This document shows, piece after piece, positions 6,244 through 28,767 of a stretch of 64,000 nt of DNA. Source of the stretch: Patescibacteria group bacterium (GTDB lineage: Bacteria > Patescibacteriota > JABMPQ01 > JAQVVF01). Both the position numbers and the translations under genes were made by a program. How positions within the stretch are numbered: the first letter of the stretch is position 1; every line of letters begins with the position of its first letter. The DNA lies in contig JAQVVF010000002.1 of assembly GCA_028699085.1 (NCBI GenBank), forward strand, positions 68,557-132,556, read 5' to 3'. Below the pieces are notes generated by a model, which saw nothing but the letters and a program-made list of their open reading frames with translations, was not told where the DNA came from and ran no database searches.

Positions 6244-6585
6244 TTACATCTTTATTTCAACATCAACACCTGCTGGTAAATTAAGGTTCGACAAAGCATC
6301 AATAGTCTTTGGAGTTGGCTTTACAATATCAATCAATCTCTTATGAATTCTAATCTCAAATTGTTCACGAGCGTCTTTATGAACAAATGTAGATTTCAAA
6401 ACAGTATCCCTATGCTTTTCAGTAGGAAGTGGAATCGGGCCGATAACTTCTGCACCGGATCTCTTTGCAGTTTCAATTATCTGCTCTGCTGATTGATCAA
6501 TAATCTTATGATCAAATGCCTTAATTTTAATTCTTATTCTTGGAGAAGATGTTTCTTCTTTCTTTTCTTGATTCTTTGTCATCAA
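6244..6585 (-). CDS. rpsJ: 30S ribosomal protein uS10 (short N-terminal extension)
   Basis: [40 protein letters not shown]...[12 protein letters not shown] matches uS10. Confidence 0.97.
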
Positions 6586-21888: not shown

Positions 21889-22407
21889 TTAAATTTTTCG
21901 ACTATCATATGCCCAATGCAACACTGCCTGTCTTTGTCTTTTCCGGCAATCCCAATCACCCTTAAAACAATTTTTCTTAATCTGAGCAATATGGCGCTTT
22001 ATTGCCTTCCAACGCTTTATCTGACGCTGATCATCGTTGTGTCTTCTTCCCAAATAGTATCTACAATACCATTGAAACCAACCTCTAGGATCATCAACAT
22101 GAATCCATCCTTTAGCTCTCCAAACTGACAAAGGCTGACTAGCATTAATGCCAAAATAATTCAATTTTGGATCATGAAATTCATGACAAAGCTTTGCTTT
22201 TTTATACCAATCTACTGGAAATTCTTTTTTACAATCAGTCATATACTTTCCGCCAAAAACACCCATTTCTAACATTTCTTTCGGCGTAAGTTCGGGCCGA
22301 AATTCAGGATCAAAATTTTTACCCATTGGTTCTGTCAAATAATATCGATAATTCTTCTGCATTAAATCATTAACTACCACCAATTTTTTATACTTTTTAT
22401 TTTTCAT
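21889..22407 (-). CDS. Conserved hypothetical protein (Trp/Cys/Arg-rich, DPRGWFQWYCRYYLGRR motif)
   Basis: A 172-aa ORF. I recall the motif from uncharacterised proteins but cannot name the family. Confidence 0.6.
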   Translation of the reverse strand: MKNKKYKKLVVVNDLMQKNYRYYLTEPMGKNFDPEFRPELTPKEMLEMGVFGGKYMTDCKKEFPVDWYKKAKLCHEFHDPKLNYFGINASQPLSVWRAKGWIHVDDPRGWFQWYCRYYLGRRHNDDQRQIKRWKAIKRHIAQIKKNCFKGDWDCRKRQRQAVLHWAYDSRKI

Positions 22408-23579: not shown

Positions 23580-23717
23580 GATTTAAAACTTTCTTTATAT
23601 TTTTATATAAAAAGACACTCTGTCCAGACTGTCTTTTTAGAAAAACTTGATTATTTGATTATTATGATATAATAACAAAAATTAAATAATATGTCAAGTT
23701 TGCAACTTTTTATCACT

Positions 23718-23788
23718 TCGGGGACCCGGGAATCGAACCCGGTCTACATCCACCCCATGGACGCGTACTACCGGTATACTAGTCCCCG
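23718..23788 (-). tRNA. tRNA-Pro (anticodon GGG)
   Basis: Manual cloverleaf: acceptor CGGGGAC/GTCCCCG with discriminator A, anticodon stem CGTCC/GGATG, loop AUGGGGU, T-arm CCGGG-TTCGATT-CCCGG. No encoded CCA. A TTGATT-17-TATAAT promoter lies just upstream. Confidence 0.9.
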
Positions 23789-23828
23789 ACTTAAACATTA
23801 TTATATGCTTTAACAACCGCAAAATCAA

Positions 23829-23901: not shown

Positions 23902-24555
23902 CTATTCGATTACTTCACATCTTATTGTCGGCTTGTTGCTCCATACGTACACCGCAGTAAGTGTAATATCAGCAACTGTCTCACTACCAACTGTTTGATA
24001 AAAACTAGTTTGGTACACATTGAAACGCAAAGAATCACTTCCTATAGACCTTTTGCTTCCATCATCTTCAATAATAAAACATTCGGAATCAACAAATTTA
24101 CTTTCTTTCCCATTGAGCGGAGCTTCTACTTTGACCTCATAACCACCAATCAATAAATTAGAAAAAGAATATGTCCCATCAAAATCTGGCGTATCAATTC
24201 CTTCATATTGGCAAAGAGGATTAGATCTACAAGCATCTATTAAATCGCTGTTATTGCCCTTATAGCTATACCGTATTCTCAGTTCCGTTTCAAAATCATT
24301 ATATTGCCCATTACATTCATGTTTATAAGTGTCTTCAACAAATACGCATTGTATTTTTCTACCTTCTTTCATGGCAGAATAAGGAATAACGCCTCCTCCC
24401 GGAAACCTGATATATATACTACCAGACACGCTTCCAAACTGATCTTCTGACAAAGTAATGGTTTGATTTTGACTCTGATCTTGTTCACAAGACAACAAAA
24501 CGCTTATCAAAACAAATATCACGACACTGAAAAATCGAGTCTTGTTCTCTAACAT
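23902..24555 (-). CDS. Predicted lipoprotein with a carboxypeptidase-regulatory-like beta-sandwich segment
   Basis: Start chosen at the ATG preceded by GAGGAGGG. Signal peptide MLENKTRFFSVVIFVLISVLLSC with a lipobox-like LLSC. GTYSFSNLLIGGYEVKV resembles the CarboxypepD_reg pattern. Confidence 0.6.
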   Translation of the reverse strand: MLENKTRFFSVVIFVLISVLLSCEQDQSQNQTITLSEDQFGSVSGSIYIRFPGGGVIPYSAMKEGRKIQCVFVEDTYKHECNGQYNDFETELRIRYSYKGNNSDLIDACRSNPLCQYEGIDTPDFDGTYSFSNLLIGGYEVKVEAPLNGKESKFVDSECFIIEDDGSKRSIGSDSLRFNVYQTSFYQTVGSETVADITLTAVYVWSNKPTIRCEVIE

Positions 24556-24644
24556 TCTCCCTCCTCTTTTGGGTTTCAACTATCACGAAATAATTTTCTA
24601 AAGATCTTTCTTTACATAAATTAATTTTCTTTAAACATTAATTT

Positions 24645-24672
24645 ACATTACAACACTTTTCTATTTTGTCAA
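24645..24672 (-). promoter_or_regulatory. Candidate promoter for the lipoprotein gene
   Basis: On the minus strand, TTGACA (24672-24667), a 16-nt spacer, then TAATGT (24650-24645). Confidence 0.45.
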
Positions 24673-24673
24673 T

Positions 24674-24697
24674 AAAAAAAGCCACATTGCTGTAGCT
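24674..24697 (-). terminator. Terminator closing the CC/CDC operon
   Basis: The minus-strand RNA AGCUACA-GCAA-UGUGGCU forms a 7-bp stem with one G-U pair, followed by UUUUUUU. Confidence 0.65.
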
Positions 24698-24713
24698 CTA
24701 CAAAAAGAACAAA

Positions 24714-24911
24714 TTAACCACGAAGTTTCAAAAAATTCAATCTCTTATCTTTCGTTTTTCTCTGAATCGGAACTGTCAAAAATTTTTTCTTACAATGCTC
24801 AAAAGGAATACCTTCGCCTCGTCTTGTTTGATTTAACATAAAAACAGAATCTACCGACAAATGGTTGCTGAACAAAGTAATGAGCAATGCTTCAAAAAGT
24901 CTGCTTCCCAT
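24714..24911 (-). CDS. 65-aa hypothetical protein overlapping the 3' end of the upstream gene by 20 nt
   Basis: Start chosen at ATG 24911 because AGGAGA lies 6 nt upstream. The protein begins MGSRLFEALLITLFSNHLSVDSVFMLNQTRRGEGIPFEHCKKKF... and has no recognised family. Confidence 0.45.
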   Translation of the reverse strand: MGSRLFEALLITLFSNHLSVDSVFMLNQTRRGEGIPFEHCKKKFLTVPIQRKTKDKRLNFLKLRG

Positions 24912-25308
24912 CTTGATCTCCTGTATCATCGAATATCCCTGAGAATCTGACCAAATCAGTCCTTAAATCACCAGGTCTCTTTCTTTCATCCTGCAATAAA
25001 AAATGGAAACCTTTGCCTTCAGATTCAACAGGATTACTATCATGTGGCAAAATCACCAAGTTCCAATTCTGAATACAGGTAGTATCTTGAAAAGGATTGA
25101 AATTCCTCAAGATCTCACAATCACATTTGATTTTCAAAGCCATGAAAAAAATGGTTACCCTTCCGAAATGAATTCTGCCAATTCCATTTTTTTGCATTTC
25201 ATTATATTCAGCGATCACTTCTCTGGTCTTTTCCAAACTATGAATTCCACCTTCACAACAACCAGCACGTCGCGCATTCAATTCTTGGTAAAAAGTTCCT
25301 ATCTGCAT
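24892..25308 (-). CDS. Hypothetical protein, CC...CDC motif, paralog A (138 aa)
   Basis: Start at the ATG preceded by GGAGGGGG (7-nt spacing). It is a paralog of the gene immediately upstream, shows higher GC than the host, and matches no recognised family. Confidence 0.65.
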   Translation of the reverse strand: MQIGTFYQELNARRAGCCEGGIHSLEKTREVIAEYNEMQKNGIGRIHFGRVTIFFMALKIKCDCEILRNFNPFQDTTCIQNWNLVILPHDSNPVESEGKGFHFLLQDERKRPGDLRTDLVRFSGIFDDTGDQDGKQTF

Positions 25309-25309
25309 T

Positions 25310-25702
25310 TCACACCCCCTCCGATCCGACACAGCACTGCGGCATCATCGGATCGCATACGCCACGCACGTAATCTAAATTGATTACACCCAAATCACCA
25401 ATCGAAATTCCCTTTCGCACTCCCTTAATAGACAAATCCCACTGCTCAGACAGCCACCCATTGCCCATATTCAAACATTCCACCTGGCAATCGCATCTCG
25501 CTCCAATTTCCATCAAAAATTCAATCGCCCAATCAGCACGAATTGAAAACTCCAAAGACAGCTCCTGCACTCTGCTAAAAGAATGAACATCATTGCTGCA
25601 ACATTTACGGCCTTCGCGCATCAACTTTACAAAACCAATCAAATCCAAACTGCCTTTTTCAATAGAAAAACCAGAATCGTAAATAGAGCTCATTGGACTC
25701 AT
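25310..25702 (-). CDS. Hypothetical protein, CC...CDC motif, paralog B (130 aa)
   Basis: Start at the ATG preceded by GGAGGA. Its TGA stop is separated from the ATG of paralog A by 1 nt (TGA-A-ATG). Both share CC..(G/D)(I/V)HS(L/F), CDC, W(N/D)L(V/S)I and GDL. Confidence 0.65.
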   Translation of the reverse strand: MSPMSSIYDSGFSIEKGSLDLIGFVKLMREGRKCCSNDVHSFSRVQELSLEFSIRADWAIEFLMEIGARCDCQVECLNMGNGWLSEQWDLSIKGVRKGISIGDLGVINLDYVRGVCDPMMPQCCVGSEGV

Positions 25703-25830
25703 TTCCTTTTCCTCCATCACCAGCATAACTTTTGCTGGTTGCCTGCCAAAATTGGCAGGTCTTTTTTACCTTTTGGGCGTCAAATTTAAGAACAAAAAAT
25801 TGACATCAAAATGTCAAAAGAACATATCTA
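25703..25830 (-). promoter_or_regulatory. Structured 5' leader of the CC/CDC operon (three hairpins/palindromes)
   Basis: On the minus strand: TTGACAT-TTTG-ATGTCAA followed by TTTTTTG (25800-25817), CCTGCCAA-TT-TTGGCAGG (25742-25759), and ACCAGCA-6/7 nt-TGCTGGT (25719-25739) ending 3 nt before the SD. Confidence 0.5.
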
Positions 25831-25832
25831 CT

Positions 25833-25860
25833 AATATATACTATTTTAATATTTTGTCAA
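25833..25860 (-). promoter_or_regulatory. Sigma-70-type promoter of the CC/CDC operon
   Basis: On the minus strand, TTGACA (25860-25855), a 16-nt spacer, then TATATT (25838-25833). Confidence 0.55.
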
Positions 25861-25906
25861 TAAAAACAAATCACAAATCATGAACTGTATGTAATCTTAT
25901 AATATC

Positions 25907-26977
25907 TTAATTTATAGCTATATTCTCAATAATTCTTACAATATTTACCAAATCAGCTATTTTAATTTTCTCTTTTACACTATGACATTTTTCCCGACCA
26001 TAACCAATACTCAAAGACTCAATTCCTTTTTCACAAAAAACATTTGCATCTGTCGCTCCCATTCTCTTTTCATATGCTACTTTCAATCCCGACTTTCTAA
26101 TACCCTTTGAAATCATTTCGACTAAAGCGCTGTCTTTTTTATAATTATATCCAACAACTTCCTGCATTTTTTTCAATTCATATTTAGCATTGAATTTTTT
26201 ACAGCTATTTTTTAATTTTTTTTCTAATATTCCAATTTGTTTTTTAAAAATATTTTTATCAATCGCCCGAATCTCACCAACAAAATTTATTTCATCACAG
26301 ATTACATTTCCGCCTCTGCCACCAGAAACAACACCAATATTTGAAACACAATATTTGCTAATCCTGCCCGGCTTCCACATATTAATAAATTCTGCAAGAC
26401 AATTAATCGAATTCACGCCTTCTTCTGGCGCGCGCGAGTGCGCCATTTTTCCAATTACCTTACCCGAAAAACTCTGAATATATGGAGCGCCACAAGTTAT
26501 AAAGCCACAACGCGATGAACTATCAATAATTACTGCTCTCTTTGATTTCAAATTTTCGAAAACTAAATTCCTTGCTCCAACGCATCCAATTTCCTCCTGC
26601 ACTGTAAAAATCAATTCCAATGGCCGTACATTTTTTTGTTTTCGTAAATTTTTAACTGCCAACAAAATACCTGCAACACCGGCTTTATCATCAGCTCCCA
26701 AAATTGTCCTCCCATCGCTTCTGATAACACTATTTTTAATTATTGGCTTAATATTTTTTCCCGGCGAAACTGTATCCATATGAGCCGACAAAATTATTGG
26801 CTCGCCTCTGCCTTTTGTTTTTGCAATCACATTGCCGATTTTATCTTGCTTTGCTTTAATTTTAATTTTTTTTAAATAATCAATAATAAAATCAGCAACC
26901 TTTTTTTCATTGCCAGTTTCACTATTAATTTTTACTAGTTTCAAAAAAACTCTTACAACTTCAAGATCTCTCTTCAT
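25907..26977 (-). CDS. M20-family metallopeptidase/amidohydrolase (PepT/ArgE/DapE-like)
   Basis: SAHMDTV, LGADDKAGVAGIL and TVQEEIGCVGA metal-ligand motifs. Host-like AT-rich composition and no SD. Confidence 0.8.
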   Translation of the reverse strand: MKRDLEVVRVFLKLVKINSETGNEKKVADFIIDYLKKIKIKAKQDKIGNVIAKTKGRGEPIILSAHMDTVSPGKNIKPIIKNSVIRSDGRTILGADDKAGVAGILLAVKNLRKQKNVRPLELIFTVQEEIGCVGARNLVFENLKSKRAVIIDSSSRCGFITCGAPYIQSFSGKVIGKMAHSRAPEEGVNSINCLAEFINMWKPGRISKYCVSNIGVVSGGRGGNVICDEINFVGEIRAIDKNIFKKQIGILEKKLKNSCKKFNAKYELKKMQEVVGYNYKKDSALVEMISKGIRKSGLKVAYEKRMGATDANVFCEKGIESLSIGYGREKCHSVKEKIKIADLVNIVRIIENIAIN

Positions 26978-27045: not shown

Positions 27046-28767
27046 TTAATCCATAAAAGAACAACTTGTCATTGCCGAATTAGATCGGCCATGAACAATA
27101 TAACCATCAGAGATTGGAATGCAAGTCACTGTATTTCCGCCAAAACTAGAGCTATTTGCATCATTATCAAGCCAATACCAAACACAAATTCTCGTCCGCA
27201 CATTTTCTTTGTCCGCCTTTTTATTAGCTGGATCAAAAATCATCATTTCATCAATTACCATCTCGCAATATTCTTGAGCAATAACAGTTCGTTGTTTTGC
27301 CATTTCCGCAAATGTTTTCACTAGCTTTCTCCATGTACTCCGCATCATCCCCTTACTAATTGCCACAGCATGTCCGCCAGCAGCTTTGTTATCACCACCC
27401 GACAACTTCAGCACTACTTCCGCATCCAATCTTTTTCTAGCCTGTCTAATTTTTACAAACCAATTTTCTCGACCAGACATCACAAAAATTTCTCGCCCAA
27501 CATTTTTAAACATTGTTACCATCTTTGTGGATTCAGGATCAGCCATTTTCCATCCTCTCGTTGACTTTGCCAAAGCCATCAAAGACTTCAAATCTCCCAA
27601 TCCTAAAAATATCTTTTTTCCTAGTTCCAAATCTTTTTTATCTCCCAACTCACGAAAACCAATCAGTTGCAAATTATTATCAAAAGCAAACCAATATTCC
27701 CGAATCTGCATATCTGAAAGTTCCTGCATTGATTCATTAGAATATTCAACGCCCTTCCAAATAAAATTGTTTCCTTTCCAAACAACTGTATAGGCAAAAA
27801 AATTTTTCAATTCAACAAAACCATCGCTTCCCAAAAATTTGATCCATTCTTCATTCAAACGCTCATCAAATAACCATGCCATCAATTCTTTATAATCCAA
27901 AAAAGTCAGCAGATTTGGATGCAGTAAAACTTTGCCATCAAAATAGGCATCAATAATCTTCTTTTCAATATCTGCTGCAAATACTGCCATCCTGTTTTTC
28001 TGTAAATCATTTTTGTCAATTTCAGAATATTCTTTGAAGACTCTTTCCACCAAATCAAGTTTTTTGCCTTTCAAATAAACTCCATCATCTTTGACTTCTG
28101 CCAGAAAAGATATCCCAAACAAAAAAGTCAAACCAAATTCTTTTCCGTATTCTTCAAACAGCTTTGTCAAAGCCTGCTGTTCCGGACCATAACCATCGCG
28201 CCAAGGAGTCAAAAGAATTCCCACATTTCCGCCATTTGGCAACAAATCATGGATAGCTTCGACATACTTTTTGGCAATTGGCTCAAAAAATTTTTTGTCA
28301 GGGAAAAAATTACGCGAAATAATATCAATTACTGCTCCATAACCAGAACCAGTTGCACCCAAAGTAAATTCATTAATCTTCAATCCTTCAGCAGTTCTGA
28401 TTGCATCAATCCGAATTCTTTTTGCCAAAATTACGTTTTTTCTTTCCAATTCTTTTTTCCAAATCTCAATCTGCAATTTTGACCGACCGCAACACAAATC
28501 CTGCCACAGCCAAGAATATTCGCCATTGCTTGATCTCCTCGCCAAATCAACACAACCTCTCAAAAATCTTGGAATCAGATCTTCAAGCCTTTTCAAAGTT
28601 GCAATCTCTCCACAAGTCAAAGCATAAGTTTCCAGCCCAATTCTTGCCGTATAATTTTTTGGCATAGTCCCAATTTTTCCCCAATAAAGACCTTGTTCCA
28701 AATATTCCTTTTCCATTTGCCTACCCAAATCATCATAATCAAACAGCTGTCTGCTCGTTCCCTGCAT
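27046..28767 (-). CDS. Glutathionylspermidine-synthetase-like / circularly permuted ATP-grasp amide ligase (573 aa)
   Basis: RIRIDAIRTAEGLKINEFT parallels R.D......G..KLLE.N. HPNLLTFLDYKELMAWLF parallels P.......NKALL.LLW. VVLKLSGGDNKAAGGHAVAI parallels V.KP...REG..V. VIAQEY parallels the hinge. All parallels are to GSP-synthase family members (E. coli YgiC/Gss) recalled from memory. AGGAGAG lies 6 nt upstream of the ATG. Confidence 0.55.
   Translation of the reverse strand: MQGTSRQLFDYDDLGRQMEKEYLEQGLYWGKIGTMPKNYTARIGLETYALTCGEIATLKRLEDLIPRFLRGCVDLARRSSNGEYSWLWQDLCCGRSKLQIEIWKKELERKNVILAKRIRIDAIRTAEGLKINEFTLGATGSGYGAVIDIISRNFFPDKKFFEPIAKKYVEAIHDLLPNGGNVGILLTPWRDGYGPEQQALTKLFEEYGKEFGLTFLFGISFLAEVKDDGVYLKGKKLDLVERVFKEYSEIDKNDLQKNRMAVFAADIEKKIIDAYFDGKVLLHPNLLTFLDYKELMAWLFDERLNEEWIKFLGSDGFVELKNFFAYTVVWKGNNFIWKGVEYSNESMQELSDMQIREYWFAFDNNLQLIGFRELGDKKDLELGKKIFLGLGDLKSLMALAKSTRGWKMADPESTKMVTMFKNVGREIFVMSGRENWFVKIRQARKRLDAEVVLKLSGGDNKAAGGHAVAISKGMMRSTWRKLVKTFAEMAKQRTVIAQEYCEMVIDEMMIFDPANKKADKENVRTRICVWYWLDNDANSSSFGGNTVTCIPISDGYIVHGRSNSAMTSCSFMD

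Follow-up and report, generated by a model that had tools for sequence, protein, structure and literature searches.

A lineage-restricted operon of Saccharibacteria-related Patescibacteria encodes two paralogous Cys/His proteins, most likely a diverged branch of DUF2695, and a small basic protein

Three small genes on the minus strand of a Patescibacteria group bacterium contig, here called B, A, and C, constitute a real three-gene, co-oriented operon with translational coupling. They lie within a stretch of 64,000 nucleotides, hereafter the window (positions 68,557 to 132,556 of contig JAQVVF010000002.1, assembly GCA_028699085.1). B and A are paralogous Cys/His proteins, and C is a short basic protein. 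The explanation that we favour, with a confidence that falls a little short of even, is that B and A are two very divergent DUF2695-like, metal-stapled helical proteins that are co-translated with a small basic partner from a lineage-restricted operon.

The three open reading frames were found at the positions given for them in an earlier reading of the DNA made without database searches (the sequence-only reading). Gene B (25702..25310, minus strand; 130 aa) encodes an acidic protein (pI 4.7) with a predicted all-helical core; its longest possible ORF starts at 25726. It is followed by its paralogue, gene A (25308..24892, minus strand; 138 aa), and by gene C (24911..24714, minus strand; 65 aa), which encodes a basic protein (pI 10.7) and for which an alternative upstream ATG at 24929 would give 71 aa. 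The junction between B and A reads TGA-A-ATG (25312..25306), i.e., a single base separates the stop codon of B from the start codon of A, and a Shine-Dalgarno-like GGAGG/AGGAG is located 5' of each start (25715..25711 for B, 25322..25318 for A, and 24922..24918 for C). The translational coupling of B and A that had been proposed is borne out by this junction and by the AGGAG/GGAGG motifs before the starts. It had also been proposed that C starts inside the end of A, behind an AGGAGA of its own; the AGGAG is indeed in place, but the overlap is due to a one-nucleotide deletion. Five of the six near-identical contigs (L001, L002, L003, L005, and L006) carry an extra base near 24938-24940, and the last 15 residues of A in the window, as well as the A/C overlap, are therefore products of this deletion. 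Residues 1-123 of gene A (25308..24940) are common to the relatives, whereas the tail encoded in the window is frameshifted. Gene A is intact in L001, L003, L005, and L006; there it encodes 127 aa, and its TGA and the upstream ATG of C overlap in the sequence ATGA. In L002, a run of Ns at an assembly gap interrupts the gene independently. The A sequence of the window is found unchanged in the NCBI protein MDD3887451.1, which comes from the MAG of a Patescibacteria group bacterium. A is also frameshifted in L010, and the frameshifts in two lineages (that of the window and that of L010) suggest that A may be dispensable. As for gene C, its start in L004 and L008 is the ATG equivalent to 24911, and thus the 65-residue form is the conserved one.

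The family is confined to one small Saccharibacteria-related Patescibacteria clade. Word-indexed searching of 5.8 billion proteins retrieved nothing beyond the near-identical proteins and the L004/L007 pair, whereas a full HMMER search with a profile, run against 1.84 billion cluster representatives, yielded six proteins from about five related lineages, among them three new ones (the B-type P0012 from L008 and the A-type P0013 and P0014 from L009 and L010, respectively). A scan of 185,579 species-representative genomes matched only the Saccharibacteria MAG, a metagenome scan returned only L010, which was already known, and a scan of viral contigs for the A/B family gave no match. Likewise, HMMs of the A-type and B-type subfamilies detected no additional A/B paralogues in the window or in the fetched loci. 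The relatives comprise six near-identical contigs, with L001-L003, L005, and L006 at 97-98 % nucleotide identity, and more divergent lineages, one of which is represented by both L004 and L007 (an NCBI MAG of an uncultured Candidatus Saccharibacteria bacterium; 64 % identity over the operon). The order B-A-C is found in the lineage of the window, in L004/L007, and in L009, and L010 shows B-A up to the end of its contig. In L008, a B-type gene is followed directly by C, and A is absent; a heterodimer of A and B therefore cannot be obligatory. In L008 and L010, the promoter and the leader match those of L004 almost exactly, which argues that all carriers are close relatives.

The operon does not form an island. 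It is embedded in conserved chromosomal synteny, with genes for GT2 and GT4 glycosyltransferases and NDK and, further on, an M20 peptidase (25907..26977), B-A-C itself, a lipoprotein-like protein with weak Ig-like matches (23902..24555), and an ATP-grasp protein; its flanks share approx. 80 % nucleotide identity between the lineage of the window and L007. Protein C has a hydrophobic, helix-like N-terminal stretch and a conserved C-terminus, ..DK(R/K)xxFLK(L/I)RG-stop, in which ..K..FLK(L/I)RG-stop is invariant in four lineages. This C-terminus, together with the nearby RimK-like ATP-grasp and M20 peptidase genes, was the reason for considering a LysW-type amino-group carrier system. The idea was rejected: C is basic and ends in ..LRG, whereas the LysW-type protein is a small acidic carrier with a C-terminal Glu, and neither the ATP-grasp nor the M20 gene adjoins the module in L008 and L010.

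Local G+C content peaks at 0.46-0.49 inside the region, compared with about 0.32 elsewhere, and protein homologues are nearly absent. For these reasons, a structured RNA was the idea tested first, and a reading in which the region is not protein-coding, being instead a large structured RNA or having its genes in the antisense ORFs (25003..25383 and 25380..25586), has to be weighed against the sense genes. Nothing in the window reached the gathering threshold of an Rfam 15 covariance model, and relaxing the cut-off to E 10 gave only noise in 24500..25950. Selection at the codon level, however, is clear. The dN/dS ratios between the window and L004/L007, the Saccharibacteria MAG lineage, are all below 1 (A 0.17, C 0.26, and B 0.40), and the sense frames show an excess of changes at third codon positions. 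Variable codons among members of the window lineage are synonymous and non-synonymous in the proportions 12:7 (B), 5:5 (A), and 2:2 (C). The sense ORFs stay open in about five lineages, including across approx. 64 % nucleotide identity, and the protein motifs persist where DNA identity falls to about 40 %. The antisense ORFs, on the other hand, differ in position and length in L007. With purifying selection acting on the sense frames, which remain open across lineages, and no conservation of the antisense ORFs, it is the sense ORFs that are the genes, as the sequence-only reading had assumed. Thus, the antisense ORFs were rejected as real genes and a large non-coding RNA was rejected as well; the non-coding reading is effectively refuted by the codon-level evidence, and we consider it extremely improbable.

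Most of the genes around the B-A-C module evolve more slowly than it does, and the contrast is greatest for B. Between the lineage of the window and L007, dN is 0.02 for NDK and for the GT4 glycosyltransferase, 0.08 for the ATP-grasp protein, 0.15 for the M20 peptidase, and 0.17 for the lipoprotein, compared with 0.25 for both A and C and 0.82 for B. Among the nine neighbourhood genes compared, B is the fastest, the other eight (A and C included) having dN values of 0.02-0.30.

The paralogy of A and B, which had been claimed from shared motifs, is well founded. Pairwise BLASTP of A against B gives an E value of 5e-5, hhalign of the A-type against the B-type alignment gives a probability of 96.8 % (E 2.2e-10 over 97 columns), and the HMM of each type detects the other. 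An alignment of 10 family members served as the conservation check on the proposed motifs, and it modifies them considerably. Invariant positions (A numbering) are F6, C18, H23, F54, C62, D63, and C64, with W82 nearly invariant. Cys/His residues common to all 10 members amount to three Cys and one His in the pattern C-x3-8-H ... C-D-C. The His and three of the four Cys that had been described as invariant thus hold throughout the family, but the fourth Cys differs by subfamily: it is C17 in the A-type proteins and, in the B-type proteins, a Cys four residues after CDC. Of the proposed CC motif, the second Cys is invariant, as are the His and CDC that go with it, but the first is replaced by Gly in B of L004/L007 and by Tyr in B of L010. 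Neither W(N/D)L nor GDL...R, the two C-terminal motifs, proved general; W82 alone is nearly invariant among the 10 members. In the window, the set therefore takes the form C17-C18-x4-H23 ... C62-D-C64 in A and C35-x4-H40 ... C70-D-C72-x3-C76 in B; in total, the A/B proteins contain 4 to 8 Cys each. The A-type proteins differ further in a 9-residue insertion between helices, and the C-terminal portions of both A and B, 40 to 60 residues long, are additional and variable.

The only family to which this core can be related is DUF2695, a prokaryotic domain of about 53 residues. To our knowledge, no function is known for DUF2695, and it resembles the A/B proteins in comprising small prokaryotic proteins without a known role. 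DUF2695 (PF10905) is the top Pfam family for all four B-type lineages, with E values of 0.056, 0.0052, 0.0016, and 0.0002 and scores of 14.0 bits for B of the window, 17.4 for B of L004/L007, 19.0 for P0012, and 21.9 for B of L010; all of these lie below the Pfam gathering score of 25 bits (whole-protein hmmscan). Each match covers positions 11/16-51 of the 53 profile positions, begins in the C..H region, and ends at CDC. Since four independent orthologues match the same short profile in register, chance is an unlikely explanation, which argues for a far-diverged domain of the DUF2695 type. Differences are nonetheless substantial: apart from the B-type scores of 14 to 21.9 bits against a cut-off of 25, the A-type proteins gave no match to DUF2695 with hmmscan, and A and B have additional C-terminal regions, form a tandem pair, and are accompanied by a third small gene. 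Within these limits, the A/B core is most likely a very diverged branch of the uncharacterised DUF2695, as judged by comparison with the Pfam profile. In the literature, DUF2695 is listed among the genes repeatedly found in the neighbourhood of cyclodipeptide synthases (PMC5767969) and among those of a Klebsiella plasmid (PMC11349299). In the other comparisons, A, B, and C reached no curated threshold in Pfam, NCBIfam, PHROGs, or PADLOC, and no match to A or B was found among PDB sequences. The description of the proteins as an unrecognised family is accordingly right insofar as no database assigns them at a curated threshold, but it has to be qualified by the sub-threshold match to DUF2695 in all four B-type lineages.

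AlphaFold2 models, built from shallow family alignments of 6 to 9 sequences, predict both proteins to be all-helical. The mean pLDDT of the A model is 66 (70-84 for most of residues 1-70 and lower beyond), and that of the B model is 69 (82-92 for residues 41-90). Both models place the C..H pair in the loop that follows helix 1, and CDC where a later helix begins. Such ligand placement is compatible, in the models, with one metal site that bridges the two segments, and we infer that the Cys3-His set binds one structural metal ion, most likely Zn2+. A shared metal or Fe-S site built on four Cys and one His had been suggested; a Cys/His set is indeed conserved in all 10 members, but it comprises three Cys and one His. 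The predicted arrangement resembles known Cys3His structural zinc sites, e.g., treble-clef-like fingers, in that the modelled ligands come from a loop (C-x4-H) and a helix start (C-D-C) and are invariant while their surroundings drift. It differs from them in that A and B match no zinc-finger family by sequence or fold. Indeed, comparison of the A/B models with solved structures gave no fold match and no helix-turn-helix with a significant structural match, and the zinc-binding anti-sigma (ZAS) motif H-x3-C-x2-C is absent from A and B, which also have no anti-sigma match in Pfam. Both proteins appear to be cytoplasmic, with no signal peptide evident in their sequences.

The same residues might instead serve redox chemistry. 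The three Cys and one His might ligate a [2Fe-2S] cluster or a similar centre, or act as a thiol switch, in which case A and B would be sensors of redox or iron status. An invariant set of 3 Cys and 1 His is consistent with this, although it is mitoNEET-type by analogy only, and the additional subfamily-specific Cys, within a total of 4 to 8 per protein, fit it as well. However, the CDGSH motif C-x-C-x2-(S/T)-x3-P-x-C-D-G-(S/A/T)-H is absent from the sequences, no zf-CDGSH match was obtained in Pfam even at E 10, and no other Fe-S family of Pfam was matched. Moreover, the predicted fold is helical, and C..H precedes CxC, which is unlike the motif order of CDGSH proteins. Small domains with a single Cys3His site are also more often structural Zn sites. 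An Fe-S or redox sensor is therefore an unlikely, though not negligible, alternative to the structural zinc site.

Expression of the operon appears to be governed by its own signals, and the promoter and terminator that the sequence-only reading had attributed to it are both present. A sigma-70-type promoter, TTGACA-16 nt-TATATT, with 11/12 consensus matches, is located at 25860..25833 (minus strand); its -35 element and surroundings are nearly identical among L004, L008, and L010. At the other end, an intrinsic terminator (AGCTACA-GCAA-TGTGGCT followed by a T-run) lies at 24699..24678 (minus strand), and its sequence is kept in L004 and L008. Directly 3' of the -10 element, the leader contains a palindrome, TTGACAT-TTTG-ATGTCAA, followed by a T-run (25817..25794, minus strand), which occurs once in the window against 0.03 occurrences expected. 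Its arms, TGACA..TGTCA, are unchanged in four lineages, with an inter-arm spacer that varies from 3 to 5 nt. Further downstream, a hairpin with the stem CCTGCC/GGCAGG (25760..25741, minus strand) is kept in four lineages, and the stem differs by lineage, being CCTGCC/GGCAGG in the window and CCGCCA/TGGCGG in the others, with one pair changed on both sides. A second hairpin, CCAGCA..TGCTGG (25738..25720, minus strand), is present just 5' of the ribosome-binding site of B in both the MFE and the centroid structures of the window lineage; a comparable but unrelated stem occurs in L010, and none in L004 or L008. Promoter, palindrome, and first hairpin are thus the elements preserved across four lineages. 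Folding of the whole leader gives z-scores of -2.65, -2.70, -0.13, and -0.88. The claim of a structured leader is therefore borne out in part.

The palindrome is either a DNA operator or a short 5' RNA hairpin/attenuator. If it were an operator, A and B might constitute a metal-dependent pair of transcription factors that bind it as homo- or heterodimers, with C as the regulated product. We regard this possibility, in which they would act as a metal-dependent repressor at their own palindrome, as very unlikely.

The explanation that we favour, with two metal-stapled DUF2695-like proteins and a basic partner, can be set out as follows. In the roughly 75-residue core of A and B, the Cys3-His set and its metal, most likely Zn2+, would staple a small helical domain. 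One promoter would read B, A, and C, with translation coupled through TGA-A-ATG (and through ATGA in relatives); the shared promoter and the coupling suggest that the three proteins are made together and probably form a small complex. The charge pattern is constant in direction, with pI values across all lineages of 4.7-6.3 for B, 6.9-9.9 for A, and 9.7-11.2 for C. Acidic B, neutral-to-basic A, and strongly basic C might therefore assemble, so that the Cys/His proteins hold or neutralise C; that C is part of the complex is probable from gene order, coupling, and opposite charge. The conserved leader palindrome and hairpins would control output, and the whole would represent an accessory, fast-evolving module and not a part of core metabolism.

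Several of these features are also what would be expected of a toxin-antitoxin- or immunity-like system, in which C is the active protein and B (with A where present) binds and neutralises C and represses the operon at the palindrome. As in type II toxin-antitoxin operons, the genes are small and coupled, an acidic partner is combined with a basic one, a palindrome lies in the promoter region (here, directly downstream of the -10 element), evolution is fast, and distribution is patchy. The order of the genes, with the neutralisers first and the small protein after them, the rapid change of the partner protein B, a Cys/His gene copy number of one or two, and the very narrow distribution all fit this scheme. 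However, none of the three proteins has a significant match to a toxin, antitoxin, immunity, or defence profile in Pfam, NCBIfam, PHROGs, or PADLOC, and the chromosomal position of the operon is stable, its synteny being conserved in all lineages without a mobile island. Purifying selection acts on C, in which no toxin fold can be recognised, and the missing helix-turn-helix match of A and B also speaks against such a system. Furthermore, the operon has three genes instead of two, with a small protein of only 65 residues. On balance, a toxin-antitoxin-like function seems rather improbable for B-A-C. A broader possibility, to which we likewise give little weight, is that the operon encodes an undescribed three-protein system of one Saccharibacteria-like clade, in which two Cys3His metalloproteins sense metal or redox state or neutralise C, and C is the effector.

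If the favoured explanation is true, a very divergent, duplicated branch would be added to the uncharacterised DUF2695, and the key residues of this branch would be those of a Cys3-His site. DUF2695 would also gain a fixed partner, the 65-residue basic protein, and a conserved regulatory leader. Should the three-protein reading be true instead, an episymbiotic bacterium would possess a small regulatory or toxin-antitoxin-like module of a new kind. The findings bear on no long-standing open question and are of modest curiosity. Small, fast-evolving proteins private to single lineages are common in Patescibacteria, and B-A-C adds one more case. Its locus may nonetheless serve as an entry point for a first biochemical test of DUF2695-type proteins.

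Gene A differs in length between the window and its closest relatives. At 24938-24940 the window lacks one nucleotide that is present in all but one of the six near-identical contigs, a deletion that shifts the last codons of A (138 aa vs. 127) and abolishes the ATGA stop-start overlap between A and the 71-aa form of C. The 138-aa sequence is identical to that of NCBI protein MDD3887451.1, and the deletion itself could reflect either genuine variation or misassembly. Gene A is also interrupted in other loci. In L010, a related locus in which B and A run up to the contig end, a 1-nt deletion lies just 3' of the CDC motif (about 1700-1773), and A-type sequence (FNPFQDL..) resumes in another frame; in L002, one of the near-identical contigs, A is broken at about 6440-6500 by an assembly gap (NN and five missing bases). 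That A is frameshifted independently in the window and in L010 could be a hint that the gene is dispensable; alternatively, these frameshifts may be metagenome errors.

The surroundings of the module also vary. Homology between the window and the near-identical contig L001 stops exactly at a tRNA-Pro(GGG) gene (23717-23789), which was called by ARAGORN and was not listed by the Rfam scan at the gathering threshold. Past this tRNA, L001 (7730-12393) encodes a large serine recombinase of 610 aa along with a fragment of a DnaG-type primase, and the segment has the appearance of an integrative element located at tRNA-Pro and missing from the window. On the upstream side, a gene pair encoding a 107-aa Trp-repressor-like (YerC-type) protein and a 128-aa unknown protein with a C-terminal ..HWSH adjoins the module directly in L008 (551-1370), a locus with B and C without A, and in L010 (102-920), and lies further upstream in the near-identical contig L005 (1277-2103). 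Both genes are absent from the window between the NDK gene and the gene for a 573-aa protein.

The latter gene (27046-28767), located directly upstream of that for the M20 peptidase, yielded no match in Pfam or NCBIfam. It is syntenic in the Saccharibacteria MAG (62% identity, dN/dS 0.19), and its product is another clade-restricted unknown. For a 172-aa ORF (21889-22407) flanked by the ATP-grasp gene and the next large gene, family searches returned no match at all, and no gene was called at the equivalent place in the Saccharibacteria MAG (L007).

Conservation with respect to L007 is uneven in and around the operon. It is lowest, at about 35-45% nucleotide identity, at 25200-25500 (spanning the second half of B and the beginning of A), where G+C content reaches 0.46-0.49 in a genome of approx. 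0.32. The intergenic stretch between gene C and the downstream lipoprotein-like gene (24556-24713) is 88-92% identical, whereas the value for the coding DNA of the operon is 40-75%. Besides the operon's terminator, this stretch contains another TTATTGACAAAATA promoter together with a 5' UTR of approx. 90 nt with GAAAGATCTTTAGAAAATTATTTCGTGATAGTTGAAACCC at its end, and it could serve as a conserved regulatory leader.

The leader of the operon itself carries two copies of GTTCTT (25821-25826 and 25788-25793), one on each side of the palindrome (25794-25817). A purine run complementary to this hexamer lies between the Shine-Dalgarno sequence and the AUG of B (GGAAAAGGAA, 25703-25710), and in minimum-energy folds of L010 and of L004, from the divergent Saccharibacteria lineage, the 5' copy pairs with this SD-AUG region. 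It is tempting to speculate that such predicted pairing might act as a translational switch.
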